64,000 nucleotides of DNA from an uncultured Acidimicrobiales bacterium (GTDB lineage Bacteria > Actinomycetota > Acidimicrobiia > Acidimicrobiales > SHLQ01): the NCBI GenBank assembly GCA_964562985.1, contig CAZLWE010000002.1:1630-65629 (forward strand), in the 5' to 3' direction. Below are positions 3,618 through 64,000 of this stretch, piece by piece (the first letter of the stretch is position 1; each line of letters starts with the position of its first letter). The notes under the pieces were generated by a model, which searched no databases, had not been told where the DNA came from, and was given only the letters and a program-made list of their open reading frames with translations. Both the position numbers and the translations under genes were made by a program.

Positions 3618-5030
3618 CTACCCGTCGGTAAGGAAGCGCAACAGCTTCTGGAAACGAGCGACCACCACGTCGCGCTCGAGCGTTGTCACCGCATCCCAAA
3701 TCGGTATCCCAGCGGTGGATCCGGTGATGGCCGCGCGAGCCGGAACTTGCGAGCGTGCGCCGAGTTCGTTCCCGACCTCGCCTACCGCTTCGTTCATCGC
3801 CTCAGCAGTCCACTCAACGCTGTCGAAACGCTCGATGAGGGCAGTGAGTATTTCGGGAACGAGCTTGCCTTTGCGAATCCCTTTGGTCCAGCCCTTGTTC
3901 TCGTTGTCGAACTCCACCTCGTCGGTGAATAGCCACCCGATGAAACGCGGGATATCGGCGAACTTCTCGACCCGCTGCTGCACCTCGCCAGCCACCATCG
4001 CAAATACCTCGGGGCGATAGGCACCATTTTCCCACGAAACCTCGGTGTCGAGACCGTAAACGAACGGCTCAGCTTTGTCGATGAAGTCCTCCACCGGGAG
4101 CGCTCGAATGTACTCACCGTTGATGTGATTGAGCTTCGTCACGTCAAAGAAGGCCGAGCCCTTGTTCACGTTCTCCAGCTTGAACAGCTCAATGATCTCC
4201 GTAATAGGGCGAATCTCGACATCGTCGGGCGGGCCCCAACCCAGCAAGGCCAGATGATTCACCATGGCCTCTGGGAGATAGCCCTGACGCAAGAAGTCCA
4301 TCAGCGACACATCATCTCGTCGCTTGGACAGCTTCTTTCGCTTGTCGTTTACAAGCAATGGCAGGTGGGCGTACGTGGGCTTGTCACCGAAATTCAGCGC
4401 ATCCCAAATCAACATGACCTTTGGAGTGGTGTTCAGAAGATCCTCTCCGCGAATGACGTGGGTGATACTCATGTCTGCGTCATCAACTGCATTCGCGACG
4501 AGGAAGGTCGGGGTTCCGTCGCTTCGGCGCACGACGAAGTCTTCGAGATCCGCGCATGAAAAGGTCACCTCACCGCGAATCACGTCCTCGATGACGATCT
4601 GCCCCTCGTCGGGAGTACGAAAGCGGACCACACAATCTGGGCCGTCGGAGAGTCCCTTATCTCGAGACCATCCGTGATACCCCGATGGAAGTCCCGCCTC
4701 CTTGGCAAGTTCGTCGGACTGCTCTCGAGTGAGGTTGCAGAAATAGGCGTGGCCGGATTCGACGAGCTGCTCAACAGCGTCGACGTGGAGTCGTTGGCGT
4801 TGAGATTGATAGTAGGGCCCCTCATCCCAGTCGATTCCGAGCGTTTGCAACGGCTTCACGATGGCATCGATGTACTCGGGCTTGCGTAGCGCCGCGTCGG
4901 TATCCTCAATTCGCAGGATCATCTCGCCACCGGTGGAACGGGCGTAGAGCCAGTTGAATAGAGCTGAACGTGCCGATCCGACGTGCAGGAAGCCGGTTGG
5001 GGCTGGCGCAAAGCGCACTCGTGTATTCAC
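3618..5030 (-). CDS. gltX: Glutamate--tRNA ligase
   Basis: RVRFAPAPTGFLHVGSARSALFNWLYAR (HIGH-type motif) and KLSKRR (KMSKS-type motif), 470 aa. Confidence 0.95.
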   Translation of the reverse strand: MNTRVRFAPAPTGFLHVGSARSALFNWLYARSTGGEMILRIEDTDAALRKPEYIDAIVKPLQTLGIDWDEGPYYQSQRQRLHVDAVEQLVESGHAYFCNLTREQSDELAKEAGLPSGYHGWSRDKGLSDGPDCVVRFRTPDEGQIVIEDVIRGEVTFSCADLEDFVVRRSDGTPTFLVANAVDDADMSITHVIRGEDLLNTTPKVMLIWDALNFGDKPTYAHLPLLVNDKRKKLSKRRDDVSLMDFLRQGYLPEAMVNHLALLGWGPPDDVEIRPITEIIELFKLENVNKGSAFFDVTKLNHINGEYIRALPVEDFIDKAEPFVYGLDTEVSWENGAYRPEVFAMVAGEVQQRVEKFADIPRFIGWLFTDEVEFDNENKGWTKGIRKGKLVPEILTALIERFDSVEWTAEAMNEAVGEVGNELGARSQVPARAAITGSTAGIPIWDAVTTLERDVVVARFQKLLRFLTDG

Positions 5031-51966: not shown

Positions 51967-52416
51967 CTAGCACTGACCAGTCCCCGTGATCCGCGCGATG
52001 GCTGCCGCAAGCGCCTCCTTGTAGTCGCCCGCGAGCACTTGTGGGAGTGTCTCCTCGAGCGAGGCTTCAAGATCCCACAACACCCGGCGCTCGTGTTCTG
52101 GAAGAATGTCAAACGCTTCCAACTCGGTGAAACGAGACAACCAATCGAAGAATACGAGCGCCTGATCATCGCTCATAAGCGAAGCCTCGTCCGTCATGCC
52201 AAGAGCCCGACCATCTCCGTGTCGAAGGGTCTTCTTCTGAGCCACAAGGCTCGATAGAAGCGACTGTAGTTCGTCTGCATCAGCGCCGACGCGAGTCGAG
52301 ATATCGCCGTCGCTTAACGCGTCAAGAGTCTCACGAAGACCACCTTGCAAGAGTGACAATTCACGCTTCGTCACCTCAAGAACGAAGAGCCTTGCATCGG
52401 AATGACTAAGTTCCAT
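51967..52416 (-). CDS. Hypothetical acidic helical protein (second candidate immunity/accessory gene)
   Basis: 149-aa ORF downstream of the toxin-immunity pair on the same strand. No family recognised. Confidence 0.45.
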   Translation of the reverse strand: MELSHSDARLFVLEVTKRELSLLQGGLRETLDALSDGDISTRVGADADELQSLLSSLVAQKKTLRHGDGRALGMTDEASLMSDDQALVFFDWLSRFTELEAFDILPEHERRVLWDLEASLEETLPQVLAGDYKEALAAAIARITGTGQC

Positions 52417-52473
52417 AGCTCACGCTAACCCAACGACTCGACCCTCCCGGAAAGCAGAACTCAGGCAACCCGT

Positions 52474-53076
52474 TCAAGTACAGCCTGACCGAGAGCCTGC
52501 TGCGAATTCCTGCTCGTCATCCCACATCGTCTCGACCGTAGTTGTGAGAAACGAACCGTCTGGCGCAAAGATCGCGGCACGGGCGCCAGGTGACTCTTCC
52601 GAGACAATTACGCCATGTTCGATAGCAGCAGGCCTTGCCTTCCAATCTGCCTGACCGAACTGTGCCTCCGCGTTACGTACGGCTCGCTCGAGGTCGACTT
52701 GTTCTTGTTCGTGCAGTGGCAGCGACGACCGGATCGAATCAAATTGCTCCCGCAACTCGTGGCGCTCAACGAAAGACAGCTCAAACCACAACGATCTTGC
52801 CTCTGCGACCACCTCGCCCTCGGCGTTGAGCAATAGCGACACAATTGCGGCCTGACCCACCGGCAGGGCTCCGAACATTAGGGGCTGTCGATTGATATGG
52901 CTCCGTGCGAGGTCCACGAACTCTGCCATGCCTTCCGGGGTGATGCGCCTCGTGAGCGCAAACAGGCTCCGAGCGCGAACGACGGCAACCGCAGCTAGCG
53001 CCCCGTCCACTAACTCCGCCGACGACTGAACGTCGTACTCGGAATCAGCAGTCATCAAGTCCTCAAGCTTTGTCAT
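52474..53076 (-). CDS. Hypothetical protein, candidate immunity protein
   Basis: Starts 12 nt after the toxin stop, with AGGTGA as the RBS. 200 aa, cytoplasmic, acidic. Confidence 0.5.
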   Translation of the reverse strand: MTKLEDLMTADSEYDVQSSAELVDGALAAVAVVRARSLFALTRRITPEGMAEFVDLARSHINRQPLMFGALPVGQAAIVSLLLNAEGEVVAEARSLWFELSFVERHELREQFDSIRSSLPLHEQEQVDLERAVRNAEAQFGQADWKARPAAIEHGVIVSEESPGARAAIFAPDGSFLTTTVETMWDDEQEFAAGSRSGCT

Positions 53077-53088
53077 ATGGATTCACCT

Positions 53089-54681
53089 CTAGTCAAGAAA
53101 GTAGATCGCCCTAAACTCGGCGTCCTTGTTTGCGACAAGTTCTTCGGCGATGTCTGCCCGGCCTGCCTCATGCGCGGCCTCTATCTCAAGATCGTACGCC
53201 CGTTGCTCCATTGCCCACCGAGCATCTGGGTTCTGGGAGTAGTAACCCATGCCTGGGAAGCCGTTGGCGGCATCGTCAAGCGCATGTTGTGCCTCATGAC
53301 GAAGGGCGGACATCGAAGCATCTGGATCCAGGATTATTCTCCCGGGCTGACCTTGCGCTGGGCTATACGCAAGTGACCCTGGACGATTGGTGACAACGTC
53401 AAATCCCTGAGATCGCAGTTCTTCTACCAGTTGAGAAAATTCAGGCGTGCCTCTTCCGGGACCCTGGACTGCTCGCATCGGGTCGCCGTTCGATCGCAAT
53501 ACGTCGGTAGTTGCGTTGACAACATTGTCGCCACTTCGGCCGAGAATCCCCGCGTCTTCGAGCCAGCGTTTGGCCCATTGGAGTGCTTCGTCCAGGTTGC
53601 GGAAGATTAGTCCGTCGGCTGCGGCCTTGATAGCGGGTTTGGCCAACGTTGCGGCTTGTCCGATGCCCGGCAGTAGCGCAATGGAAGACAGCGCTGCGTC
53701 GAGGTACTCGCCTTCAGCCAGGTACCAGGCAGCGTTGATGCCATCGGCTGCGTTGCCGACTACTGGGACCATGCCGAACACGTCGAGCGTGAGGTGCCCA
53801 ATGTCGGAGAACGACCAACCGCCACCGGATTGGCTGATGCCCAGATGGTCTCGGGCGTCCTCCGAAGACTCGGCCATCGCGAGGACGATTCGCGCGTATT
53901 CGACTTGTTCGTCGGTGTAATAGCCGTGCTCGTTTTCGATCATGGCGTTGAGGTCGTTGGTCGACCAGACACCATCAGCGTCGGCAGAGCCGATGCCATC
54001 ACCGCGATCTTGTTTCGCAGTATCCAAGATGTCGCGGATTTGATCGAGTGCGTGCTCGGCGTCTTCGAACGGTGTCCGTTCGGGCGTGGACCATGCTTCG
54101 GCTTCTTGACGCCGGAACGCCGCCCACAGGTCGTCTACTTCTCGTTGACGCTCATCCATTCGCTCTTGGATGTCGCGGGCCTCACGCAACATGGCGTCGA
54201 GAATTGGGTCGTTGTCGCTGCCCGACCAGTTTTCGATCTTGTCGTTGAGTTCGGCGAGGCGTAACCGGTCCAGCGTTGCCTCGGGATCACGAGACTTCGC
54301 GGCTTCGGTGGCGTGATCGAACGACACGCCATCGCGCATCATGTCTTCAGCGGCTTCGATCTCTTCGGGTGTGAGCCCGGCTTGCCGGAACGCTGCGTTG
54401 AGGTCGGCGGGGATGAACGCTCGAACCCGGCCAGTGAGACCTAGCGGCTGGGCGTCGGTGGAGTGTAGGTAGTCCACTCGCCATGCAACATCGTCTCGCT
54501 CGGTGCGTAGGTCGTTCGCCAGTACGGTTAACGCCGGAATCGGCCCATAGGACGGATTCTGACCTGGCCGATTCAACAACGCGTACGCCTCGGTCAGCAG
54601 CGGCGACAATGCCACCATCGCTTCGCGCGCATTAGCCGAAGCAACGCCATAGGCGTCGGTGAGCGCCCCTGCGCTACTCAT
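53089..54681 (-). CDS. Polymorphic-toxin-like protein: helical N-terminal region, PT-TG-like module, C-terminal HEXXH domain
   Basis: LDVFGMVPVVGNAADGINAAWYLAEGEYLDAALSSIALLPGIGQAATLAK resembles the pre-toxin TG module of LXG-type toxins. The C-terminal about 150 aa carries LRHEAQHALDD. Start set at ATG 54681. Confidence 0.6.
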   Translation of the reverse strand: MSSAGALTDAYGVASANAREAMVALSPLLTEAYALLNRPGQNPSYGPIPALTVLANDLRTERDDVAWRVDYLHSTDAQPLGLTGRVRAFIPADLNAAFRQAGLTPEEIEAAEDMMRDGVSFDHATEAAKSRDPEATLDRLRLAELNDKIENWSGSDNDPILDAMLREARDIQERMDERQREVDDLWAAFRRQEAEAWSTPERTPFEDAEHALDQIRDILDTAKQDRGDGIGSADADGVWSTNDLNAMIENEHGYYTDEQVEYARIVLAMAESSEDARDHLGISQSGGGWSFSDIGHLTLDVFGMVPVVGNAADGINAAWYLAEGEYLDAALSSIALLPGIGQAATLAKPAIKAAADGLIFRNLDEALQWAKRWLEDAGILGRSGDNVVNATTDVLRSNGDPMRAVQGPGRGTPEFSQLVEELRSQGFDVVTNRPGSLAYSPAQGQPGRIILDPDASMSALRHEAQHALDDAANGFPGMGYYSQNPDARWAMEQRAYDLEIEAAHEAGRADIAEELVANKDAEFRAIYFLD

Positions 54682-54842
54682 ATGCATGCGAATTATCGGC
54701 ATAACATGAAATGTAGTGAAAAGCATTGAACGCGTCAAGCTACGATCTCTAGCCGTCCCTGCCGACGGCCTTGAACAGTTGGGGACCTGTACCTAACTGT
54801 TCTGTTGGTCAACCTGAGGACTCCGGGCACCGATAGAGAGAT

Positions 54843-55547
54843 ATGCAGGAACATGTTCTTGTTGTTGAGGACGCACCGGAGTTCCAACACATTCACCGCG
54901 AATCCCTATCGAAGGCGGGCTATCGAGTTTCGGTAGCTGGCGATGGCGCGCGGGCGCTGGAGATCGCGCGGTCCACCGAGCCGGTCGTAATCATCTTGGA
55001 TCTAGTCCTGCCCGATGTGGACGGCATGGAACTGTGCGCGGAGTTCCGCAAGTTCACCGATGCCTACATCATCATGGTGACGAGCCGAAGCGACGAGGTC
55101 GACAAGCTCGTCGGGCTGGCCGCTGGAGCCGATGACTACATCACCAAGCCATTCAGCAACCGTGAACTCGTGGCGAGGGTAGGCGTCCTACTTCGTCGGC
55201 CCCGGACGCTTGGCGAGGACGAATCGACCGCTCGTGACTTCGGTGATCTCGTCATCGATGCCGCGGCCCGAGAGGTCACGCTCGACGGCGAGACCCTCTC
55301 GTTGACCAAGATCGAGTTCGACATTCTCGACGCGCTCACGATCGACCCCAACGTGGTGCGATCGCGCGACTCACTGCTGGAACACGTATGGGGCCCGAAC
55401 TGGGTTGGCGACACTCACGTGATCGACGTACACCTGGCGAATCTGCGCAAGAAAATCGACGCCAACGGCGTCAAGCACATCAAGACCATCCGAGGTGTCG
55501 GCTATCGGTTCGCTGGCAGCAGCGCTACGGCGCAAACGGCAGCGTAA
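54843..55547 (+). CDS. OmpR/PhoB-family response regulator
   Basis: REC domain (VLVVEDAPE..ILDLVLPDVDG..DDYITKPF) and a winged-helix output domain (LTKIEFDILD..IKTIRGVGYRF). Confidence 0.9.
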   Translation: MQEHVLVVEDAPEFQHIHRESLSKAGYRVSVAGDGARALEIARSTEPVVIILDLVLPDVDGMELCAEFRKFTDAYIIMVTSRSDEVDKLVGLAAGADDYITKPFSNRELVARVGVLLRRPRTLGEDESTARDFGDLVIDAAAREVTLDGETLSLTKIEFDILDALTIDPNVVRSRDSLLEHVWGPNWVGDTHVIDVHLANLRKKIDANGVKHIKTIRGVGYRFAGSSATAQTAA

Positions 55548-56409
55548 CGGTCACCGTCGTCGACTCGCCGGGTGCCGACTCGATGCCCAATGCGGCGTTC
55601 GTGTGGGTCGCGAGACGTTTGATAAGCGAGTAACCAATACCCCGAGCTTGGGAGTTCGACCAATCGTGGAACGTCGGGTCGAGCAGCGGTCCCACGTCGT
55701 CGATCCCGGGGCCGGCATCGACCACCGAGAACACCACACCGTCGTCTGCGTCGTCGGCAGCGATCTTCAAGAGGCCTGGCTGACCGTGCTTGATCGCATT
55801 GCCGATCAGCTCATCGAGGATCGTATCGAGGTCCGATCGGTGCCCGAGCGCAGAGTCGTCGCCAGCGCATCGGTACTCGCTAGCGAGCAATAGGCCCGCC
55901 CGCAGCGCACGGTGCTTCCATCGCTCGCCCGCGCGCGTTAGGACGTCCATGACGTCGATCGCGCCAACCTCGGTCGAGTGCGGTTCCTCCAGCTCAAGAA
56001 ACAAGAGCAGTCGGGTCATGATGACTTCGAGGTCGCGCGCCGAGGCCAAACCATCTTCGAGCCAAGCGCGCATCTGTTCAGACTTTGCGTTGGCACCAGC
56101 CGTCTCCATCACCCCGAGCACGCCGTTAAGCGGTGAGCGGGTCTCTCGCGAGAGGAGGCGAAGGAATTCGGCGCGCTCAGCGGCCGATAGTGCTGCCTTC
56201 GTCCGTTCCTGCTCGAGTTCTTCGGTGCGTTGCGCGACGCGATCGTCGAGTTCTTGGTTGACAAGGAACAGCCGGCGCATGCCGTCCTCGGCGATGCGTT
56301 CGGCTTCTTCGCGCGCCGAGCGCTCACGTGCTACCCGTCGCTCCAGGCGCGCGACCCTTTTCTCAAGGTCGGCCCGCTCTAGGTCGGACAGTTCCAGCTC
56401 AGGCGACAT
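55525..56409 (-). CDS. Histidine-kinase-like protein lacking the phospho-acceptor His (coiled coil + degenerate HisKA + HATPase_c)
   Basis: The H-box reads AEFLRLLSRETRSPLNGVLG, with Arg where the SHE(L/I)RTPLN His is expected. N-box ELIGNAIKHG, G1 VDAGPGID and G2 GIGYSL are intact. No TM or sensor domain. Confidence 0.75.
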   Translation of the reverse strand: MSPELELSDLERADLEKRVARLERRVARERSAREEAERIAEDGMRRLFLVNQELDDRVAQRTEELEQERTKAALSAAERAEFLRLLSRETRSPLNGVLGVMETAGANAKSEQMRAWLEDGLASARDLEVIMTRLLLFLELEEPHSTEVGAIDVMDVLTRAGERWKHRALRAGLLLASEYRCAGDDSALGHRSDLDTILDELIGNAIKHGQPGLLKIAADDADDGVVFSVVDAGPGIDDVGPLLDPTFHDWSNSQARGIGYSLIKRLATHTNAALGIESAPGESTTVTVTLPFAP

Positions 56410-56950
56410 CGCGTTGCGCTACGACCTCGCGCCGGACGGCGATCACTGATTCAGTGCCTTCACCGCTGAGCACCTCGATCGTCACTGGCTCGTTGTAGTG
56501 GTCACCCGCACCGAGGATGAGCCCTTCGGCCAGTGGGGACAGTCCCCGTTCGGACCGGTAGGTCAGGTGTAGTTCGTCGTCGCTGATTCGCTCGGGGATC
56601 ACGTCTGGTGGCTTGGCGTTCGGATCGAGCTTCTTGACTTCCACATGGATGATGCTGTGGATCGATTCCAGGAACGCGAGCACATCGAGGTCGGGGTCGA
56701 GGAAGTCCGACATCGACGCGACGAGATGCGGCAGGGCCTGTCGTCCGACGAGGCGTTGCACGTCGGCCGGGTCGTGGCCGGTCTTGCTAGCCGCAACCGA
56801 CACCAGGGCGAGGAGGTCTTCGTCCGGATAGGTCCCGAGGGCGGTGTAGCCACCGTTGAGGCCGGCGTCGTCGAGCAGGTCGTCCCAGGCGTCCTCACCA
56901 AGTAGCTCAGTGACGGCCTTCTCGGTGACGTTAAAGATGATGCCTTTCAT
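56399..56950 (-). CDS. H-NOX (haem nitric oxide/oxygen-binding) sensor protein
   Basis: MKGIIFNV..LLGEDAWDDLL N-terminus, candidate proximal His in LESIHSIIHVEVKK, KPP Pro, and the Y-x-S-x-R motif (LTYRSERG). ATGA overlap with the upstream kinase gene. Confidence 0.8.
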   Translation of the reverse strand: MKGIIFNVTEKAVTELLGEDAWDDLLDDAGLNGGYTALGTYPDEDLLALVSVAASKTGHDPADVQRLVGRQALPHLVASMSDFLDPDLDVLAFLESIHSIIHVEVKKLDPNAKPPDVIPERISDDELHLTYRSERGLSPLAEGLILGAGDHYNEPVTIEVLSGEGTESVIAVRREVVAQRDVA

Positions 56951-58428
56951 GCGGCCATCCCCGTTTCTAGTCGTTGTTGTAGTTGGGCTTCCACGTGAGA
57001 AATCTCCCCTACCAAGCGAGCCCGAAGGGCATCGCTTGGATGATCTGTCTTTTCGTATTCGGCGCACAGGCGGGCAAGCCGCTCGGCGCCGATCAGGGCG
57101 CTCGTCGACTTGAGGGTGTGTGCGGCCCGGCGCGCCTCTTCACCGGTGTCAGCCTCATTACCCACGAGGAGTTCGGTACGGGATCCCAACTCGGCAAGGT
57201 AGGTCTCGATCACGACCCGCACCGTGTCGGCGTCGCCGAGATCCTCAACCAGGGCTTCGATGGCCTCGTGCATCGTGTCGGTGCTGTCGGCCTGACGTTG
57301 CGTGGCGTCGAAGCTTTGATCGGTGGTGTCGTCGTGACCTAACCAACGCGTCATCATGGCGCGCATGTCGTCGAGGCTGACCGGTTTCCCAAGGTGGTCG
57401 TTCATACCGGCATCGAGGCATGCGAGACGATCTCCTGCCAATACGTTGGCGGTCATAGCGATGATCGGAACGTCGGGTGGCACGAGCTCTTGCGCACGAA
57501 TCTCTTGGGTGGTCTCGATACCGTTTGCGCCCGGCAGGTTCCAGTCCATCAAGATCAGGTCGACAGATTCGGATGTGAGGAATTCGAGCGCTCGCTCGCC
57601 GCTGTCGACGGCCACAGCACCGAGGCCGAGTAGCTCGAGTTGTTTGAGCGCGAGGGTGCGGTTGATCTCGGAGTCTTCTACGACGAGCACCGTTCCCGAC
57701 GCGGTACCGGTTGGGGCGATTCGTTCGACGTCTTTGCTTTCGGCTGCTGCACATGGAATCGAGAAAACAAAAGTGCTACCCACACCGACCGTGCTATCGG
57801 CCGAGATCGTGCCGTCCATCGCATCGGCGATCCGCCGCACAATGGCCAAACCAAGGCCGGTCCCTTGCACACCTGCGTTTCCGACCCGAACAAACGGTTC
57901 GAAGATGACCTCCAGGTCATCGGGCTCGATGCCGACACCGCTGTCTCGCACCTGCACCGAGAGGTTCGTGGCGTCGGAGGCCAAGGTGACCTGAACCGAG
58001 CCGATCTGGGTATAGCGGATGGCGTTGCTGATGAGGTTGTGGACGACCTGGCCGAAACGGACGGAGTCGCCCATGACCCGCAAGGGCACATCGGAGGAGA
58101 AGTCGACCAGCAAGCGAAGACCCGCTTCCTTGGCATCGGGACGCAGTCGATCGGCGATGGAGGTCACCAAGGTGCGCGGAGCGAAAGGTTCGTTTTCGAG
58201 GCTCGGGGTGGTGGAACTGAACTCGCCGTAGGTGATGACATCATCCACGAGCACTCGCATCGAGGCGGCCTCGTCGTACAGGGTTTGTGCGATCCGGTGG
58301 TTGGCATCGTCGAGGTCGCTGTTGAGCAAGAGTTCGGACAGCCCGAGAAAGGCGTGCAGCGGCCCGCGCAGTTCGTGGCTGACCGCAGCCATGAACCGTT
58401 CATCGCTTGATGTGGATCGCTTCGTCAT
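56947..58428 (-). CDS. Sensor-less hybrid histidine kinase (HisKA-HATPase-REC-Hpt)
   Basis: Starts almost directly at the H-box (FMAAVSHELRGPL). N/G1/F/G2 boxes present. REC domain (VLVVEDSE..LILMDWNLPG..GKP). Hpt domain (AAHTLKSTSALIGA). Confidence 0.85.
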   Translation of the reverse strand: MTKRSTSSDERFMAAVSHELRGPLHAFLGLSELLLNSDLDDANHRIAQTLYDEAASMRVLVDDVITYGEFSSTTPSLENEPFAPRTLVTSIADRLRPDAKEAGLRLLVDFSSDVPLRVMGDSVRFGQVVHNLISNAIRYTQIGSVQVTLASDATNLSVQVRDSGVGIEPDDLEVIFEPFVRVGNAGVQGTGLGLAIVRRIADAMDGTISADSTVGVGSTFVFSIPCAAAESKDVERIAPTGTASGTVLVVEDSEINRTLALKQLELLGLGAVAVDSGERALEFLTSESVDLILMDWNLPGANGIETTQEIRAQELVPPDVPIIAMTANVLAGDRLACLDAGMNDHLGKPVSLDDMRAMMTRWLGHDDTTDQSFDATQRQADSTDTMHEAIEALVEDLGDADTVRVVIETYLAELGSRTELLVGNEADTGEEARRAAHTLKSTSALIGAERLARLCAEYEKTDHPSDALRARLVGEISHVEAQLQQRLETGMAA

Positions 58429-59726
58429 CGTCGGGAACCTCCAGTGACCAATCGGCGGCCACCGCCATTTCGTTGAGTAGCACGATTGCCAACCACGACG
58501 ACGCCCCATGTGGTGAGTACGAGCAACCCGACCACCACCGTGCGTGCGACGACGAAGGACTCAAGCGATGCCGACCTCGTGGCGAGGACCACCCCGAGGA
58601 CGACCACTCCTCCAAGGAGCAGAGTTGCCGGTCGGGCGTCGCCATCGACCGACGACACCATTGCGGCCCCGGCGACTACGGCGATCAGCCCCGTTCCCAA
58701 GGCATACGGGCCGACGAGGTAGGCCAGGTCGGCGAACTCGGTGCCGTAGGTGATCCCAACCCAGACATCGGCGGTCAACCAGGCGCCGGTCACGAGGATG
58801 GCGACTAAGACGAGATTTCCGGCGGTGAATATGCGTCGACGGAGCACTGGTGTCAGTGGCGCGTCTTCGGCGGTCACGAACGGAAGGACCGCTTGTTGGA
58901 TGGTCCACGACCCGAAGAACACGATCCGCCCGGCCAGCGTGAGTGCAGCGAACCCTCCGGCGGTCGCCGGATCGAAGGCAGCTTTGGCAATGATGAGATC
59001 GAGATTCGTCAGCGCGGTGACAGCGATGAGACCAGCACCGACGGAACGAAGCGGCGGGTGCCCGGCGGGTGAGGACAGGTCACACCACGACCAGCGGCCG
59101 AGATGCGGTCGGCAAACGACGTAGCTGGCAAGAAAGCCGATGTTGAGCGCGATCGTCAACCCGAGAAGCCCCTTGAAGAGGACGACGACCACCGCCGTGG
59201 CCGCAGCGCGAGCAATGCCTTCCGCTAGCAGAGCGGTGGTGAGCTTTGCGAAAGCCATTTCGCCGTGGAGCCGGCCCCGCTCGACGGCGAGTTGAAGGTG
59301 CACGGGAAGACCGAACGCCATGACGAGAAGCGCCCAGGGGCTCTCGATGTTCAGCGCGCCGGCGAGTTGTGGTGCAGCCAGACCGAGCAACAGCGCACCA
59401 CCCAAGCCGATCCGGTTGGTGAGCAATCGCATTGCTGCTACGTCGCTCGCAGAATCTCGAGCCGGGTTCAACACCGCTACCGAGGTCGTGAGTTGCAGTA
59501 CGCAGGCCAGCACGCCAATGACGAGCAGCAGGGTCACCATGAGCGAGATATCGCCGAAGGTTTCAGGCGATAGCACCGACGCGAGCCAGATGTTGATGCC
59601 AAAGTTCACTGCATTGACGACCATCATCGCCGCCACCAATGTTGCGCTTCCGCCACCGAGCTTCTTGAGCGACGAGGTCCGGTCGTTGGTGACTTGCGTG
59701 GCTGCCTTTCTTCTCATAGCGATCAT
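58425..59726 (-). CDS. Wzx/MOP-family polysaccharide flippase-like membrane protein
   Basis: About 12 TM helices. Start set at ATG 59726 (ATGA overlap with the upstream STAS gene). The longer ORF N-terminus is Arg-rich off-frame text. Confidence 0.7.
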   Translation of the reverse strand: MIAMRRKAATQVTNDRTSSLKKLGGGSATLVAAMMVVNAVNFGINIWLASVLSPETFGDISLMVTLLLVIGVLACVLQLTTSVAVLNPARDSASDVAAMRLLTNRIGLGGALLLGLAAPQLAGALNIESPWALLVMAFGLPVHLQLAVERGRLHGEMAFAKLTTALLAEGIARAAATAVVVVLFKGLLGLTIALNIGFLASYVVCRPHLGRWSWCDLSSPAGHPPLRSVGAGLIAVTALTNLDLIIAKAAFDPATAGGFAALTLAGRIVFFGSWTIQQAVLPFVTAEDAPLTPVLRRRIFTAGNLVLVAILVTGAWLTADVWVGITYGTEFADLAYLVGPYALGTGLIAVVAGAAMVSSVDGDARPATLLLGGVVVLGVVLATRSASLESFVVARTVVVGLLVLTTWGVVVVGNRATQRNGGGRRLVTGGSRR

Positions 59727-60007
59727 GGCCGCATCGTCCCGACGATTCCTACAGTGCTCAGCAGATGCTGGGCTTGACTGTTTGGATCCACGACGACCTT
59801 CACGTCGCCGTATCGAGCGCGAGCCAGTGTTCGTGCTTTGACGAGCACGTTCACCACGCCGAGGTGCGCCGAGGCAACGTCGACGAAGCGAACCTCTACT
59901 TGCGGTCGGGGCTTGTCGAGCAGTTCGGTGAGGGCGACCTCGATCTCGTCCAGGCGGCCGGGACCAATGTCTCCGGTGAGGGTCAGCGTGTCGTGTGCGG
60001 AGCTCAT
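59723..60007 (-). CDS. STAS-domain protein (anti-sigma-factor-antagonist-like)
   Basis: 94 aa. The L.L.G.I pattern plus length and predicted fold resemble SpoIIAA/RsbV. ATGA overlaps on both sides. Confidence 0.5.
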   Translation of the reverse strand: MSSAHDTLTLTGDIGPGRLDEIEVALTELLDKPRPQVEVRFVDVASAHLGVVNVLVKARTLARARYGDVKVVVDPNSQAQHLLSTVGIVGTMRP

Positions 60008-60351
60008 TGGGCACCTCCGGTGAATACCGGAATCAATGAGTCGAAGCCCGTGAGTTCGAGCGTGGCGCGAAGTTCGTCGCTGGGTAGCGCGATGACAAGG
60101 TCACCGTCGCGGCCGAGCGCCGTGAGCCGGGCATCGACCAACGACTGAAGCGAGGACATGTCAGCGAAAGCAACGTTCGAGCCGTCGATCAAAAGCGTGG
60201 TCCCTGCTTCGCTGAACATGGCCTGCACGTCGAGATCTGCGTGAACGTCGAACCGCTGCGGCAACTCGATCGTGCGGGCGACGCGAGTCTGGTGCAGGGC
60301 GACCGGTGGTGCAGTGGCGCTGAAGTGTTGTTGGTTGGAGGAGAGGTTCAT
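60004..60351 (-). CDS. STAS-domain protein (anti-sigma-factor-antagonist-like)
   Basis: LLIDGSNVAFADMSSLQSLVDA..LVIALPSDELRATLELTGFDSLIPVF matches the STAS pattern, including a DxSS-like Ser. Confidence 0.6.
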   Translation of the reverse strand: MNLSSNQQHFSATAPPVALHQTRVARTIELPQRFDVHADLDVQAMFSEAGTTLLIDGSNVAFADMSSLQSLVDARLTALGRDGDLVIALPSDELRATLELTGFDSLIPVFTGGAQ

Positions 60352-60392
60352 GGCTGGGGTCTTTCTGATCGGTGGGTCTTGGAAACGAGTGG

Positions 60393-62321
60393 TTAGGCGC
60401 AGGCTTCGAGGAGGTGGTGGTGATGCCAGGCAGCGATATCGGCGAGCGGCAGACTGTTCGCCGCTGCGTGGTTGGTGGATGCCTGTTGGTCGCGCAGCTC
60501 GTCGTCGGAGAGAATCTGCTCGATCGCCGCTCGTAGAGATTCCATCGAGGACGGGTCGAATGGGAGCCCCACGAAACCTTCTTCTTCGATGAGGCCGATG
60601 AAGTCGCCAAGCTCAGGCACGACCACCGGGCGTCCGAACGCACCGGCCTGGTGCAGCGGACCGGAACTGCCGGTCGTGGAGGTATAGGGGAACACCACGA
60701 CCGAGCTCGATTCGAACAGCGGCTCGACATCCTCTTCTTCGATGTAGCCAAGGAAGCGAAGGCCCGCGAGATCGTCGTTGGTGGCAGCGACGGCGTCGAG
60801 GTAACCGGGGGCGTTGGGGCTGTCGGTTCCGCCGATGACGAGTTCGACATCGGCGAACGCTGGGTCGTTGGTGAGTTGGCGGTAGGCGTCGATCAGGTTC
60901 TCGAGGCGTTTGTAGGTGCCGAACTTTCCGAACGCCAGGATGCGGCGACCGCCATCGACAGGGTCGCAGCCGTTGTAGTGCGTGGTGTCGAATGTGCCGT
61001 GTGGGGTGAGGAACACATTGTCGGCGCCGTAGGTGTGGTGGAGGATTTCGACGTAGTTGGGCATCGTGGTGACGACACGGTTCGCCCGAAGCACGATCTT
61101 GGTGAGTGCGGTGCCGATGCCTCGGAGCACTCGCTCGATGATGGAGCTGCTCCCGAAGCCGGCAGCATCGAGGTCGACGGTGTCGACCAGGTTGTGCAGG
61201 AGCACCACAGAGGGCACGCCAGCGCAACGGGCAAGCATCGGAGTGAACAGCCCAAGTGCGGCGGGCACCTTCTTATTACCGAAGGCGGTGAAGTGGATGT
61301 TGAAGAGCACTGCGTCGGGGCGTTCCCGACGCAGTGCCCGGACGAGGCGCACGGCGTTGGTGAGGTCATTGAACTTCCAGCTCTCGACTCCACGAACTCC
61401 GGGTGGGGTTTGCGCCTCGCCATCCTCATGGAATGCGATGACCTCCTCGACGCCGTCGAGGGTGGCGAGGTGACGGGTGAGGTGGAAGCCGTATTCGTTG
61501 AGGGTGGTGTCTGATGGAGGCAGCGCGGTGACGACGCCAAACCGGGTCGGGCGTCCGGCACGTTCGGTGGCCTTGTTCGGGCGAGCGAACCGGAGCTTGG
61601 CGAGTTGCAGCACGAATGAGCCCGCGTCACGAAGGGGCCGCACGGTCGAGCCAGGGGCGTCGAACCAGGTGACCGGCACTTCGACTACCTCGTAGCCGAG
61701 ATGGTTGGCGAGCCACAGCGCTTCGAGATCGAAGCTGAAGTCAGCACTCTTGAGCGAGGTGAAAATGTCTTCGGCGGCGTCGCGCTCAAACAGTTTGAAG
61801 CCGCATTGGGTGTCGCAAATTTCCGAACCCAGCACCCACTTGACCAGAACCCGGAGAACACCACTGCAGGTGCGGCGGATCGCCGAGCGGTTCTGCTCGG
61901 TGGCCTCGGCATGTGCCCGACTCCCGATCACGACCGGGGTGCCGCGGCGAGCCTCGGCGAGCATGGTGTCGACATGCGCGATTGGGGTGGAGAGGTCGGC
62001 GTCGGTGACGAGGACGTACCGGCCCGCTGCGGCGAGCACGCCGGCCTTGACCGCTGCACCCTTACCTCGGTTCACGCCGGGGTCGAGCACCCGGACGTTG
62101 CGCAGCCCGAGCAGGCGAACCATCGCCACCGTGCCGTCGGTCGAGCCGTCGTCGGACACGACGATCTCGAAACTCTCCCCGGCTCGGGCGAGGTGGGCGG
62201 CGGTGGCAGCGATCGTCGGGACGATGCGCTGCGCCTCGTTGAACGCAGGGATGACCACACTGATTTCTGGCGTGTCAGCGACCGGCTCGCTCTTCCAAAG
62301 GGTGAAGTTCTCGTAGCTCAT
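60393..62321 (-). CDS. Bifunctional glycosyltransferase (N-terminal GT2, C-terminal GT4/GT1)
   Basis: GT2: VVIPAFNEAQRI..VVSDDGSTDGT..VTDADL. GT4-like: GKFGTYKRLENL..FLGYIEEEDVEPLF..GSSGPLHQAGAFGRPVVVP. Confidence 0.8.
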   Translation of the reverse strand: MSYENFTLWKSEPVADTPEISVVIPAFNEAQRIVPTIAATAAHLARAGESFEIVVSDDGSTDGTVAMVRLLGLRNVRVLDPGVNRGKGAAVKAGVLAAAGRYVLVTDADLSTPIAHVDTMLAEARRGTPVVIGSRAHAEATEQNRSAIRRTCSGVLRVLVKWVLGSEICDTQCGFKLFERDAAEDIFTSLKSADFSFDLEALWLANHLGYEVVEVPVTWFDAPGSTVRPLRDAGSFVLQLAKLRFARPNKATERAGRPTRFGVVTALPPSDTTLNEYGFHLTRHLATLDGVEEVIAFHEDGEAQTPPGVRGVESWKFNDLTNAVRLVRALRRERPDAVLFNIHFTAFGNKKVPAALGLFTPMLARCAGVPSVVLLHNLVDTVDLDAAGFGSSSIIERVLRGIGTALTKIVLRANRVVTTMPNYVEILHHTYGADNVFLTPHGTFDTTHYNGCDPVDGGRRILAFGKFGTYKRLENLIDAYRQLTNDPAFADVELVIGGTDSPNAPGYLDAVAATNDDLAGLRFLGYIEEEDVEPLFESSSVVVFPYTSTTGSSGPLHQAGAFGRPVVVPELGDFIGLIEEEGFVGLPFDPSSMESLRAAIEQILSDDELRDQQASTNHAAANSLPLADIAAWHHHHLLEACA

Positions 62322-62419
62322 ACCCAGGTCTCGGGTCTGAACATCAAGGTGACCGGTGCGCTACCTCAAGATCAGGTCAAGGTCGCCGAGCTGTCTAAGC
62401 CGCTGCTACAAGCAGTCGC

Positions 62420-63976
62420 CTAGGCGTTGAAGACCTTGTCAACGGTGTGGTCGAAGGCGTTCGACGTCCCTATGTTCGGTTCCGATCCAACCGCCGCTGG
62501 CCCATAGGTATCAGCAGCCCTTCCGATAGCGCGACTAATTCTCCGAAAGCTGGGAATCGCAAGTGATGGACTATGACCCGAAGAGCTGCGGAACCGTGCC
62601 GTAACTAGTTTGTCAATCGACAAGTGATGGGGCGTAGGAAAGCTCACCACTCGCGACTCTAGGAGCTTCCTTCGCTTGTGTAGCGCCGAATGAATGGTCT
62701 GCAACAACCACCCATCAAGCTCAGAAAGGTAGTCGCCATCATCAATCAACGGATACGCCGAGAGAGCCCCTCGGAAATGCCTGAGCTTTATCTCGCCGCG
62801 CTGAAAAGATCTCACCTGCTTTTCATTCAAATCACCATAGAGGTAGCGACGAAGCTGACTTAGAAGACGGACGTAGTCCTTGTCGACGTTCGCTGCGATG
62901 CGGTCGAGGTTCTGACAGCCGCGCATGGGTTCGCGCAGAAGGTGGTCGTAGATCATTCCTGCGCAATCACTCTGTATCTTTTTGCGCGCCCTCTTGCTGG
63001 GCTTGCAGGACCCTAGTCCGAGGTCGTAACCCAAAAATTGAACTACTCGTTTTGTTCGAATCTCACCGTTCGGCCAGTTGGCGGGAACCAGCAAACTGAT
63101 CCCATCGGACTTGGCCTGGTTCAGACTGACACCCATTCTCGAAGCTGCTTCATTGAGAACGTTGAACGCTTGACAAACCAAATCGTAAGAGTCTGACCAA
63201 ATCAGGGTGTCATCGGCATACCTAACGAACTGAAGGCCGAGCCGCTCAAGGTTTCTATCCAATTCACTGGCAGCAAGGTTCGCGAGGATGAGACTTACGC
63301 TTGTGCCCTGCGGAATCCCCCTTCTGTTATCCAATGGCTTGCCGGGATAGTCACTGGCGAGTGCGGGCTTGAGGGGCATAAATGCTCGGAGCACATCAAG
63401 CTCGTGTCTAGACAAGAACATGGTTCTCTCGTCCAGGACGCGTTCAATGTGATCATGCGAGATCGAGTCGAAGAACGCTGAGAAATCGAATTCAGCGATG
63501 AACACCCGCTGCTTTTCGCTCCATGCATTCTTCACTGTTAAGACAGCATCTTGGGCGCTCAAGTCCCTTCTATACGCATAGGAGCTGCCGCTCATCCTGC
63601 TCGAATTCTTAGCGAGTACGCTCTCAAAGACCATTTTCGAGACCGCACTGTCGGCGACCTGAAATATGGAGACAGTTCGGAAAGTTCCATCGCCCTTTGG
63701 CACCGATTGGAGCACCGGGGGACGAGGCGCATAGCTACCTGCCTGTAAGGACTTCCAGATCGAATCGCCGATCGCAGCGGCGTTCTTCTTCGCGTGATAG
63801 GGGTCGAACCCCGAGTCGACGGCCCACCATGACGGATCGTGCGATTCGAGCGACTCTAAGTCTTTCGTAGAGCGCTCTTGCCTAGCTTTTGACTCCAAAC
63901 GCGCCCCCATTATCCTGCCCTCATGTCGGCGAATAAGGCGGTTTGCCTCCCGGATGATGTGGTCTTCGATCTTCAT
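62420..63976 (-). CDS. Reverse transcriptase, orphan/unclassified, possibly UG/Abi-like defence-type
   Basis: RT motifs present: VPKGDGTFRTVSI, FDFSAFFDSISH, RGIPQGTSVSLILANL, RYADDTLIW (YADD at 63209-63220), SLNQAKS, VQFLGYDL. About 200-aa helical C-terminal extension. G+C is visibly lower than the flanks. Confidence 0.85.
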   Translation of the reverse strand: MKIEDHIIREANRLIRRHEGRIMGARLESKARQERSTKDLESLESHDPSWWAVDSGFDPYHAKKNAAAIGDSIWKSLQAGSYAPRPPVLQSVPKGDGTFRTVSIFQVADSAVSKMVFESVLAKNSSRMSGSSYAYRRDLSAQDAVLTVKNAWSEKQRVFIAEFDFSAFFDSISHDHIERVLDERTMFLSRHELDVLRAFMPLKPALASDYPGKPLDNRRGIPQGTSVSLILANLAASELDRNLERLGLQFVRYADDTLIWSDSYDLVCQAFNVLNEAASRMGVSLNQAKSDGISLLVPANWPNGEIRTKRVVQFLGYDLGLGSCKPSKRARKKIQSDCAGMIYDHLLREPMRGCQNLDRIAANVDKDYVRLLSQLRRYLYGDLNEKQVRSFQRGEIKLRHFRGALSAYPLIDDGDYLSELDGWLLQTIHSALHKRRKLLESRVVSFPTPHHLSIDKLVTARFRSSSGHSPSLAIPSFRRISRAIGRAADTYGPAAVGSEPNIGTSNAFDHTVDKVFNA

Positions 63977-64000
63977 GGTTATTGGTGTGGGTGGTGGCGT

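Follow-up and report, generated by a model that had tools for sequence, protein, structure and literature searches.

Gene content of the locus

In the window, by which we mean the whole stretch of 64,000 nucleotides analysed here, positions 55525-62321 of the minus strand hold seven open reading frames, each in frame and with one terminal stop, and the seven-gene string of the original prediction could be confirmed with its coordinates (Table 1). A gap of 41 nt separates the fused glycosyltransferase gene from STAS1, four junctions are ATGA start/stop overlaps (60004-60007, 59723-59726, 58425-58428 and 56947-56950), and the H-NOX and kinase-like genes share an 11-nt overlap, ATGTCGCCTGA, at 56399-56409, all as read before; the earlier domain calls, 'Wzx-like' and 'His-less' included, likewise hold. 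From this degree of translational coupling a single functional unit had been deduced. In the rest of the window, however, a crude count gives about 6 overlaps of 4 nt among about 25 pairs of adjacent genes on the same strand. Such overlaps are thus common in the genome, compatible with an operon and unremarkable by themselves; the gene tables of relatives repeat the same 4-nt overlaps. No convincing -10/-35 pair was detected for the string.

Table 1. Features of the H-NOX locus, with positions in the window.
Feature	Position	Strand	Size and basis of assignment
OmpR/PhoB-family response regulator, convergent	54843-55547	+	Response_reg 1.1e-26, Trans_reg_C 1.1e-22 (Pfam)
Kinase-like paralogue (pseudo-histidine kinase)	55525-56409	-	294 aa; HATPase_c 5.9e-15, HATPase_c_2 8.8e-10, weak HisKA 2e-04
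Stand-alone H-NOX haem sensor	56399-56950	-	183 aa; Pfam HNOB 4e-36
Sensor-less hybrid histidine kinase	56947-58428	-	493 aa; Pfam HisKA, HATPase_c, Response_reg, Hpt
MOP-superfamily Wzx-like lipid-linked glycan flippase	58425-59726	-	433 aa, 14 predicted helices; homology and predicted fold
STAS2, divergent	59723-60007	-	94 aa; Pfam STAS_2 1.4e-03, under gathering score
STAS1	60004-60351	-	115 aa; Pfam STAS_2 2.7e-09, STAS 4.9e-08
Fused GT2-GT4 glycosyltransferase	60393-62321	-	642 aa; Pfam
Leader element, three in-phase direct repeats, pho-box-like	62344-62383	-	motif conservation

The N-terminal part of the glycosyltransferase (Glycos_transf_2, 4.7e-25, residues 21-187) is a GT2 domain of the polyprenol-phosphate-sugar-synthase type, with AglJ, PgfS, ArnC, PpgS and dolichyl-phosphate hexose transferase as best NCBIfam models, all under their equivalog cut-offs, and the C-terminal part is of GT-B/GT4 type (Glyco_transf_4, residues 280-442; Glycos_transf_1, 2.9e-14, residues 459-614); sister clusters encode each half in a gene of its own. 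For the 433-aa membrane protein, Pfam and NCBIfam gave no match. It aligns with its positional equivalent in the metagenome contig L012 over 406 positions (BLASTP 3e-36, 29% identity), and this equivalent matches Polysacc_synt_3 (4.7e-13). Foldseek comparison of an AlphaFold model (pLDDT 78.8) with the PDB returned MATE proteins and WzxE (TM up to 0.72 for these) as well as MurJ, each with a probability of 1.00. By homology and predicted fold, the protein is of the MOP/Wzx type. The cluster encodes neither an initiating phosphoglycosyl transferase nor a Wzy polymerase.

The 3' end of the convergent OmpR-type gene runs 23 nt into the kinase-like gene, and the OmpR-type gene occupies the same position in 11/11 genomes with the gene order of the window (type A, see below). 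Since DNA synteny with relatives extends from 62381 to about 54830, this gene lies inside the conserved block, and the phosphorelay probably ends at its product. The leader element at the opposite end consists of R1 (ACCTTGA, 62383-62377), a 4-nt spacer, R2 (ATCTTGA, 62372-62366), a further 15 nt and R3 (ACCTTGA, 62350-62344), from which 22 nt lead to the glycosyltransferase start codon. At up to one mismatch it matches once in the window, where 0.02 matches are expected. Besides the window, 9 type-A loci have the element before their GT gene, and further loci have it before the STAS1 or GT-C gene; its core, CTTGA / ATCTTGAGG / CTTGA, is invariant, and its spacers vary in length. Judged from the motif, it is the likely site at which the OmpR-family regulator would bind, and likely also the region from which the seven-gene string is transcribed. 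R1 of the window carries one mismatch and abuts the insertion of a DRT9 gene, so that regulation may differ in this strain.

Conservation of the association

A genome scan with an H-NOX alignment yielded 80 loci, whose gene content was scored with custom HMMs across 17 Acidimicrobiales species genomes and 63 loci from other taxa. Hybrid kinase, H-NOX and kinase-like genes occur together in all 17 Acidimicrobiales genomes with this H-NOX clade (43-90% H-NOX identity), and GT2, GT1/4, Wzx-like flippase and STAS genes are also kept in 16 of them, in two gene orders; eleven genomes are of type A, five have a rearranged architecture (type B) and one lacks the GT genes (type C). None of the clusters at the 63 loci of other taxa includes GT, Wzx or trio genes, and within 10 kb only three weak GT matches (26-35 bits) were found, several kb off. 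Independent metagenome contigs display the same pattern with different flanks; all relatives are uncultured MAGs. Immediately upstream, relatives encode a GT-C-fold glycosyltransferase (STT3 1.3e-06; ArnT TM 0.54; also AglB, AftA, AftD and PglB) and two membrane-anchored proteins. This trio (BIG-MID-SMALL) is present in 15/15 genomes whose contig reaches far enough; in the window, a DRT9 defence reverse transcriptase is found in its place. The seven genes thus behave as one unit, as had been proposed, but the unit is larger than its original outline, adding the OmpR regulator, the leader element and, in relatives, the GT-C enzyme with the two anchored proteins.

We consider the chances slightly better than even that the seven genes, the OmpR regulator and the leader repeats constitute the regulatory and cytoplasmic half of a cluster coupling H-NOX to lipid-linked glycan assembly. 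The signalling and glycan genes could instead be co-transcribed neighbours by descent, with no regulatory tie between them and with the targets of H-NOX and regulator located elsewhere, which we regard as unlikely. Every genome comes from one order, and in L025 (one contig with L010) the kinases, H-NOX and the GT-C trio persist although the GT, Wzx and STAS genes are missing, making the trio, which the window does not show, the tightest link of H-NOX. In addition, a Micrococcales MAG has the leader element between its OmpR and H-NOX genes, with glycan genes not nearby, so autoregulation alone could account for the motif. Against mere descent, the association is not unique to this genome, a point on which the original prediction had made itself refutable, and outlasts the complete reordering between types A and B, fusion and splitting of the GT gene, divergence of H-NOX down to 43% identity and changing flanks. 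The motif moreover stands directly before GT, STAS or GT-C genes, and in Chloroflexota a GT-C/MID pair again adjoins a two-component pair with an OmpR regulator. We therefore retain the coupling of H-NOX to glycan assembly as the preferred reading.

Kinases and STAS proteins

The hybrid kinase is built as HisKA-HATPase_c-REC-HPt, with HisKA starting at residue 10, and its H, N, G1, F and G2 boxes, the REC DD/D/T residues and the HPt motif HTLKST are kept in 18/18 genomes. Its paralogue starts with a coiled coil and continues with a DHp domain, in which Arg has replaced His, and a CA domain whose N, G1 and G2 boxes are intact; it reads SRETRSPLNG in place of the SHE.R.PLN of kinases, and the phospho-acceptor His is hence missing. 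The Arg is found in 14 of 18 genomes (the window and 13 of 17 related ones), and His is retained in L026, L032, L034 and the metagenome contig L012. L027, L028 and L030 have degenerate ATP-binding motifs, and for L024 the CA-domain motifs failed to align.

Aligned to PDB 4hyl and canonical STAS proteins, STAS1 carries Met in place of the canonical phospho-serine (FADMSSL), and the residues seen there in STAS1 are Met, Arg or Glu. STAS2, whose orthologues match STAS_2 in Pfam, has a switch loop (S.HLG) with a His that never varies, frequently with a Ser/Thr two residues upstream of it, and has Leu at the canonical serine position by both alignment methods. In L004, L005 and L018 the two STAS proteins are fused in a single ORF. 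The switch serine is thus clearly gone from STAS1 and, in an alignment-dependent manner, probably also from STAS2. An RsbW-type kinase and a SpoIIE (PP2C) phosphatase are absent from the window's version of the cluster; the type-B sister clusters combine a canonical DS(S/T)GL STAS protein with SpoIIE, an RsbW-like HATPase_c_2 protein and a single-domain REC. Of the predicted 'partner-switching-type STAS' pair, the STAS domains stand, but a working phospho-switch is improbable given Met in STAS1, Leu in STAS2 and no RsbW or PP2C.

A true partner switch driven directly by H-NOX would still be conceivable if the kinase-like protein had replaced a lost RsbW, phosphorylating a STAS protein or binding it in an ATP-dependent manner. 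The kinase-like protein does score on the RsbW/SpoIIAB-type model HATPase_c_2 (Table 1) and on an anti-sigma F factor model (1.6e-08), it keeps its N, G1 and G2 boxes in most genomes though the His is lost, type-A clusters retain two STAS genes with neither RsbW nor SpoIIE, and the Ser/Thr near the invariant His of STAS2 could be read in the same sense. We nevertheless judge such a replacement improbable, somewhat more so than neighbourhood by descent: the canonical serine is substituted in STAS1 and, by both alignment methods, in STAS2, the ATP-binding motifs have degenerated in three genomes, and the His→Arg exchange is also found in the type-B genomes L029 and L031, which still have RsbW and SpoIIE, so that loss of the His is independent of loss of RsbW.

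H-NOX sensor

H102, P115 and Y131-S133-R135 are invariant in the H-NOX protein, and position 140, where a distal Tyr would be, is an invariant Leu. A distal hydrogen-bonding Tyr of H-NOX is associated with O2 binding by established work, and the residue pattern observed here points to the NO-selective type. No Cys occurs at all in this H-NOX clade, unlike in outgroup sequences with a C-terminal Cys pair, which argues against a thiol/zinc redox site. That O2, redox state or another signal takes the place of NO is the least probable of the alternatives, for although haem oxidation and thiol/zinc sites are reported as further signals of some H-NOX proteins (PMC8738867; PMC12329717), and NO-metabolism genes were not seen adjoining the cluster, Leu140 speaks against O2 and the lack of Cys against a thiol/zinc site.

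Proposed model

We propose a model in which H-NOX would bind haem and sense NO, as suggested by H102, P115, the Y-x-S-x-R motif and the lack of the distal Tyr, and would control the sensor-less hybrid kinase, to which translational coupling, strict co-occurrence and the precedent of H-NOX/HnoK point; the His→Arg paralogue would probably act as a non-phosphorylatable partner or scaffold. With the required domains and residues in place, phosphate would pass from His to Asp to the His of the HPt domain and then to the OmpR-family regulator. The latter would bind the conserved pho-box-like repeats (7 bp with a 4-bp spacer, the third repeat two helical turns downstream) and thereby set transcription of the operon, its own sensors included. 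Following the family assignments, the GT2-GT4 protein would use polyprenol phosphate as the carrier on which to build a sugar or short glycan, the Wzx-like protein, given its MOP fold, would flip the product, and the GT-C enzyme encoded upstream in relatives would transfer the glycan to an envelope acceptor. The weakest step is a post-translational input of the STAS pair on the glycan machinery: in sister clusters, RsbW-like kinase, SpoIIE phosphatase and single-domain REC would switch STAS by phosphorylation, and in the window's version the pair would most likely be a fixed adaptor or act via binding alone. The block suggests NO control of the cell surface in uncultured marine-type Acidimicrobiales, akin to that of Vibrio biofilm sugar.

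Relation to known systems

Three-component glycosylation systems based on polyprenol-phosphate sugars include ArnC/ArnT, GtrB/GtrA/GtrC and PpgS/Rv3779. As in these, the genes for a GT2 enzyme of the polyprenol-phosphate-sugar-synthase type, for a flippase and for a GT-C transferase occur together, but here GT2 is fused to GT4, the flippase is a 14-helix MOP/Wzx protein rather than a small GtrA/ArnEF one, and the GT-C proteins of relatives, about 1050-1100 aa in length, carry a large outer domain rich in beta structure and belong to an unnamed family. The pseudo-histidine kinases DivL and RetS have a kinase fold with no usable phospho-acceptor and are presumed to bind a partner kinase or regulator; the kinase-like protein differs from them in its conserved Arg replacement and in the translational coupling of its gene to that of the H-NOX sensor.

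In Vibrio fischeri, NO and HnoX-HahK control SYP via SypG and SypE, and SypE controls the STAS protein SypA (PMC12369376). The cluster most likely encodes a phosphorelay under H-NOX control that regulates a pathway for a lipid-linked glycan, a physically fused version of the HnoX-HahK/Syp theme. In V. fischeri the route leads from an NO-sensing H-NOX over a hybrid-type kinase and an HPt step to response regulators and to polysaccharide made by glycosyltransferases and export proteins, and the route here would be the same; both systems contain a STAS protein, SypA acting below transcription. In V. fischeri, however, hnoX-hahK is a separate two-gene operon signalling via SypF and LuxU, the regulator SypG is sigma54-dependent and SypA is switched by SypE, whereas here one cluster holds an OmpR-type regulator, no SypE-like enzyme and an apparently non-phosphorylatable STAS pair (clear for STAS1, alignment-dependent for STAS2), with an extra His-less kinase paralogue and a Gram-positive actinobacterial host. 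As in HnoX-HnoK of Shewanella and Vibrio cholerae (PMC8738867), a stand-alone H-NOX adjoins and is co-translated with a cytoplasmic sensor-less kinase. The HnoK-type kinases carry the phospho-acceptor His and signal to c-di-GMP enzymes, whereas here the gene downstream of H-NOX encodes the Arg, the role of functional kinase falls to the hybrid kinase upstream, and the genes linked to the pair code for glycan enzymes.

The arrangement had been put forward as not described before. The theme as such is known from V. fischeri and from Anabaena, where a partner-switching-like STAS-phosphorylation module acts directly on a glycosyltransferase (PMC13555669), but in the literature we found no report of a physical fusion in one cluster, nor of an occurrence in Gram-positive Actinomycetota (PMC8738867). 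The likeness to Anabaena HenR/Alr3423/All4160 lies in STAS control beside polysaccharide enzymes and in an upstream receiver domain awaiting a histidine kinase (PMC13555669), and the type-B sister clusters with STAS, SpoIIE, HATPase_c_2 and REC closely match this logic. In contrast to the Anabaena STAS domain, which is fused to the transferase and phosphorylated, the STAS proteins of the window are free and lack the canonical switch serine where it would align (STAS1 clearly, STAS2 depending on the alignment), and their cluster has neither the switch kinase nor the phosphatase. In Mycobacterium MAGs, H-NOX directly precedes GAF/PAS-SpoIIE phosphatases, and STAS and RsbW-like genes lie beside them.

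Predicted operon architecture and conservation

All seven minus-strand open reading frames of the original prediction run in frame to one terminal stop codon, and the four ATGA junctions, the last junction and the 41-nt gap between the glycosyltransferase (GT) and STAS1 genes all lie where they had been placed. Pfam finds a GT2 domain and a GT4/GT1 (GT-B) domain within a single 642-aa protein, assigns the 115-aa protein (STAS1) to STAS and gives the 94-aa protein (STAS2) a sub-threshold STAS_2 match, while the 493-aa protein is a HisKA-HATPase_c-REC-HPt hybrid kinase, the 183-aa protein matches HNOB (4e-36) and the 294-aa kinase-like protein carries HATPase_c together with a weak HisKA match. 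The gene overlaps had been taken as a sign of a single unit. They are compatible with an operon, and 4-nt overlaps are seen again in relatives, but in the rest of the window roughly one in four neighbouring gene pairs on the same strand overlaps likewise, a rate that is a rough background only, coming from a crude gene caller which mis-called the target region.

The closest homologues of the window's H-NOX are found in Acidimicrobiia/Acidimicrobiales MAGs. We inspected the neighbourhoods of six H-NOX homologues (86% to 43% identity) and, from an H-NOX alignment scan with one genome per species, collected 80 loci, which were annotated with HMMs built from the first loci. Genes for hybrid kinase, H-NOX and kinase-like protein follow each other in that order in all 17 Acidimicrobiales species genomes, and the proposed check for co-occurrence of HNOB with glycan genes returned GT2, GT1/4, Wzx-like and STAS genes in 16 of 17 Acidimicrobiales genomes.

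These clusters fall into three arrangements. In type A (11 genomes, the form to which the window corresponds), a GT-C-fold protein and two membrane-anchored proteins (BIG, MID and SMALL, respectively), the fused GT, two STAS proteins, Wzx, hybrid kinase, H-NOX and kinase-like protein are encoded in this order on a single strand, with a convergent OmpR-type regulator gene next to them. Type B (5 genomes and the contigs L012, L014 and L098) has the order hybrid kinase, H-NOX, kinase-like protein, GT1, Wzx (Polysacc_synt), GT2, STAS, SpoIIE, HATPase_c_2, STAS and REC, with the BIG-MID-SMALL trio alongside or divergent. Type C (1 genome) contains the trio and the three signalling genes only. STAS1 and STAS2 form a single open reading frame in three related loci (L004, L005 and L018), and type B encodes the GT2 and GT4 halves separately. 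In all 63 H-NOX loci of other taxa, GT, Wzx and trio genes are missing from the cluster, and within 10 kb the only hits are three GT matches of low score (26-35 bits) that lie several kb away. Since the flanking genes vary from locus to locus, while the overlaps recur, the STAS genes fuse, the GT gene splits and the glycan genes are missing from the 63 loci of other taxa, the cluster appears to be a functional module and not an inherited neighbourhood alone.

The core of the original prediction, one functional unit joining a gas sensor to glycan genes, is judged right on comparative grounds, as the association persists across relatives, gene orders and GT fusion or splitting. The seven genes do appear to belong to one unit, but its extent was drawn too narrowly: DNA synteny with relatives runs from position 62381 down to about 54830 and includes the OmpR gene.

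Features of the window and of related loci, with coordinates on the respective sequence
Feature	Sequence	Position	Strand	Remark
Seven-gene string	window	55525-62321	-	
ATGA junctions	window	60004-60007, 59723-59726, 58425-58428, 56947-56950	-	
Last junction	window	56399-56409	-	ATGTCGCCTGA
OmpR-type regulator gene	window	54843-55547	+	convergent
Terminator-like hairpin	window	55474-55456		within OmpR gene (consensus scan)
Leader repeat element	window	62344-62383	-	before GT gene
Synteny break	window	62381/62382		
Reverse transcriptase gene	window	62420-63976	-	518 aa
Region beyond the OmpR gene	window	52000-54830		
Open reading frame	window	53089-54738		549 aa
Open reading frame	window	52474-53076		200 aa
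Repeat-rich open reading frame	window	9113-18034	+	2973 aa
GGDEF-EAL gene and two small open reading frames	L001, relative of 86% identity	1466-4454		between SMALL and GT genes
BIG family example	L010	3268-6510		
BIG family example	L097	10001-14502		
Repeat pattern	type A clusters			before GT gene
Repeat pattern	L001, L024, L027, L028, L030			between GT and STAS1 genes
Repeat pattern	type C cluster			before BIG gene
Repeat pattern	L014			before operon with OmpR gene
Repeat pattern	L051, Micrococcales MAG	4732-4790		between OmpR and H-NOX genes
H-NOX before SpoIIE phosphatase	L050, Mycobacterium MAG	10462-11949		
H-NOX before SpoIIE phosphatase	L068, Mycobacterium MAG	10450-13626		
H-NOX before SpoIIE phosphatase	L087, Mycobacterium MAG	9124-13638		

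Predicted glycan enzymes and the upstream trio

For the 433-aa membrane protein, neither Pfam nor NCBIfam gives a hit, and Polysacc_synt is not matched even at E up to 1. It is, though, related to its positional equivalent in a rearranged relative (BLASTP 3e-36 over 406 aligned positions), which itself matches Polysacc_synt_3 at 4.7e-13. An AlphaFold model built with 19 homologues (pLDDT 78.8, 14 helices) retrieved the lipid III flippase WzxE as best Foldseek match (TM 0.72), together with MATE (5.2e-07) and MurJ. With this homology and the MOP-superfamily fold of the model, the designation as a Wzx-like flippase can be retained as a prediction. For the GT2 half of the window GT, the best NCBIfam matches are the polyprenol-phosphate-sugar synthase models AglJ, PgfS, ArnC and PpgS (1e-16 to 6e-15, far below the equivalog cut-offs); only membership of the GT2 family is secure.

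BIG proteins, of about 1050-1100 aa, have more than 2,400 family members, which are annotated as hypothetical wherever a name is given. Sequence profiles gave weak PMT_2 and PTPS_related hits only. A profile search against PDB sequences returned nothing but noise, and we therefore predicted the fold instead. The resulting model (pLDDT 75.9) matched STT3 (1.3e-06), ArnT (5.9e-06, TM 0.54), AglB, AftA, AftD and PglB in Foldseek, identifying BIG as a predicted GT-C membrane fold. MID and SMALL each have an anchor at the N-terminus, in MID a membrane anchor, and MID also gives weak Ig-like hits. In Chloroflexota, BIG-MID lies beside a REC-GAF kinase, an OmpR regulator and a GH5 hydrolase.

We found no initiating phosphoglycosyl transferase, Wzy polymerase or chain-length regulator among the genes that Pfam annotates in the clusters. 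Lacking the first two, the clusters do not amount to a textbook Wzx/Wzy system. As a set, the enzymes resemble a lipid-linked pathway, in which a glycan would be made on polyprenol phosphate, flipped by the MOP protein and transferred outside the membrane by the GT-C enzyme.

Sensor and proposed phosphorelay

The H-NOX protein matches Pfam HNOB (PF07700) with 124.8 bits over residues 2-160 (cut-off 25.5). The proximal haem ligand H102, the haem-distorting P115 and Y131/S133/R135 of the Y-x-S-x-R propionate-binding motif are invariant in 19 sequences. Tyr140 is the distal hydrogen-bonding residue of the O2-binding Thermoanaerobacter H-NOX, and lack of it marks the NO-selective subclass; in the present clade position 140 is an invariant Leu and the distal-pocket hydrogen-bonding Tyr is absent. 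By these published residue rules, we infer a haem-based, NO-selective sensor. The Acidimicrobiales clade is also free of any Cys, and a Cys pair occurs at the C-terminus of three more distant homologues (P0085, P0107 and P0119). This clade seems to lack the thiol/zinc site that has been discussed for some proteobacterial H-NOX proteins.

In the hybrid kinase, HisKA, HATPase_c, receiver and HPt domains all score above Pfam cut-offs and the catalytic and acceptor residues are kept in 18 of 18 genomes; the H-box of the window protein reads VSHELRGPLH. HisKA begins at residue 10, and the protein has no input domain. The 294-aa kinase-like protein reads LSRETRSPLNG at this point and lacks the HnoK/HahK-type phospho-acceptor His, the position being Arg in 14 of 18 genomes, while the N-box Asn, the G1 DxGxG motif and the G2 box are kept. 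Of the scanned genomes, only L026, L032 and L034 still have His, as does the metagenome contig L012; the change from His to Arg does not follow cluster type. These features are most economically read as follows: the H-NOX protein would regulate the sensor-less hybrid kinase, the kinase-like paralogue would serve as a non-phosphorylatable partner, and the relay would end at the OmpR regulator.

Leader repeats and regulator

The 60 nt preceding the GT start codon are conserved as far as distant type A genomes, and sequence further upstream is not. This leader contains ACCTTGA-CCTG-ATCTTGA followed after 15 nt by ACCTTGA, which makes three direct repeats, offset by 0, 11 and 33. The two-repeat pattern, when up to one mismatch is allowed, has a single match in the window (0.02 expected), and across 1.6 Mb of fetched loci it is found almost only in this cluster, at varying sites (see the table). 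Sites of the PhoB/OmpR family consist of seven-base repeats separated by a four-base spacer, and since the leader matches this layout and the regulator has receiver and winged-helix domains (Pfam), the repeats are a predicted binding site of the cluster's own regulator.

No convincing -10/-35 elements were found, the sigma70 and terminator consensus scan being no better than chance, with one terminator-like hairpin. No Shine-Dalgarno sequence precedes the GT start codon, and the leader may therefore be very short or lacking altogether. Rfam gave no hit within 54000-64000 at E up to 1. As a separate observation, the pattern in the Micrococcales MAG is itself a triple CTTGA repeat (ATCTTGA-N4-TTCTTGA, with a third CTTGA 27 nt on) between the OmpR-family and H-NOX genes, so that regulator and site seem to be an older pair than the glycan cluster.

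The STAS pair

STAS1 passes the STAS as well as the STAS_2 cut-off; STAS2 reaches 19.2 bits against STAS_2 (cut-off 29.2) and is orthologous to proteins that match this family. The switch site of STAS1 reads FADMSSL, with Met in place of the phosphorylatable Ser/Thr of D-S-x-G-L, and across type A this position is Met, Arg or Glu, with Thr in one genome. For STAS2, hmmalign and L-INS-i both place Leu at the serine position, and the loop contains an invariant His. Its switch residue is nevertheless uncertain, as a two-residue shift would restore a D-S motif in some STAS2 orthologues; aligning D-S-x-H-L of STAS2 with D-S-x-G-L is supported by neither alignment method.

Neither an RsbW-type kinase nor a PP2C/SpoIIE phosphatase was found in the window block or in any type A cluster. 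With the switch serine replaced in STAS1 and both enzymes absent, the pair, which the original prediction called partner-switching-type, is probably no working phospho-switch in the window, whose version looks like a simplified descendant with STAS proteins acting without phosphorylation. Type B STAS proteins read F(I/V/C)DS(S/T/A)GL. Encoded with them are a SpoIIE phosphatase, a HATPase_c_2 kinase and a single-domain receiver, which makes the partner-switching set complete; the HPt domain could supply it with phosphate. Two states of a STAS module, switchable and degenerate, are thereby found beside the same enzymes.

How the degenerate pair might act is a more speculative matter. It is conceivable, though rather improbable, that the His-to-Arg paralogue, H-NOX and STAS1-STAS2 form a phosphorylation-independent, NO-gated switch on the GT, the flippase or the GT-C enzyme, parallel to the transcriptional relay; if so, partner switching would gain a new form, and an H-NOX output would be defined for the first time in a Gram-positive bacterium. 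That the His-less protein instead became a STAS kinase phosphorylating the canonical serine is kept as a minor rival of low probability, which the STAS alignments do not support.

Relation to known systems

H-NOX signalling has been worked out almost wholly in Proteobacteria. A 2022 review shows Acidimicrobiaceae H-NOX only in a similarity network and states that an NO-sensing H-NOX had not been reported from any Gram-positive species (PMC8738867). The closest working analogue is that of Vibrio fischeri, where HahK, a kinase under NO/HnoX control, acts with SypF to set how active SypG and SypE are; these two control production of the SYP polysaccharide, SypE acting below transcription via SypA (PMC12369376). 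The likeness is functional only, since SypG (sigma54), a SypE-type kinase/phosphatase and the 18-gene locus have no counterpart in the window block or its relatives. In Anabaena, a partner-switching-like module acts directly on a STAS-bearing glycosyltransferase, and an upstream histidine kinase was proposed by the authors (PMC13555669).

In the literature on H-NOX with STAS, glycosyltransferase, partner switching or Acidimicrobiia, we found no description of this cluster. The claim of novelty seems to hold for the cluster itself, but not for its principle, for which the Vibrio fischeri and Anabaena precedents exist. As far as gene content tells, the cluster is a new version in which a regulatory theme already known is physically integrated, and it belongs to a lineage that has not been studied for this theme. 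The cluster offers a concrete, testable circuit for an order of abundant uncultured actinobacteria, comprising sensor, kinase, pseudo-kinase, regulator, predicted site and presumed targets, and gives the unnamed GT-C family a regulatory context and a likely function in lipid-linked glycan transfer.

In Mycobacterium MAGs, H-NOX genes directly precede those of GAF/PAS-SpoIIE phosphatases, and this link to partner switching suggests a wider actinobacterial theme. One of these loci (L087) additionally has a STAS gene and a HATPase_c_2 (RsbW-like) gene alongside H-NOX; we found no paper that links H-NOX to partner switching.

Flanks of the cluster

Upstream of the point equivalent to position 62381, relatives carry SMALL, MID and BIG. 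The window has a reverse transcriptase gene there, which fills the position of the trio and abuts the first leader repeat; by tblastn, the trio is absent from the window. The encoded protein is a full-length match to the DRT9 anti-phage defence model (4e-164), and its gene has a GC content of about 0.53 vs about 0.63 in the neighbouring operon. Any DRT9 non-coding RNA would lie past the window end. Sequence beyond position 64000 was not recovered, the GT protein giving a 4.2-kb contig and the reverse transcriptase protein and an exact 46-mer giving no match.

The SMALL/GT junction seems to be a recurrent insertion point, which in L001 holds a c-di-GMP enzyme. The GGDEF-EAL protein of this relative has 824 aa and is accompanied by two small open reading frames. 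On the other side, synteny ends just past the OmpR gene; the next two open reading frames of the window (549 and 200 aa) match nothing in Pfam or PADLOC and have a lower GC content of about 0.58, and L001 has AMP-binding enzymes at that position. Far from the cluster, the 2973-aa open reading frame contains 22 DUF5979 repeats together with DUF7601 and SpaA-like domains and looks like a giant Gram-positive surface adhesin.
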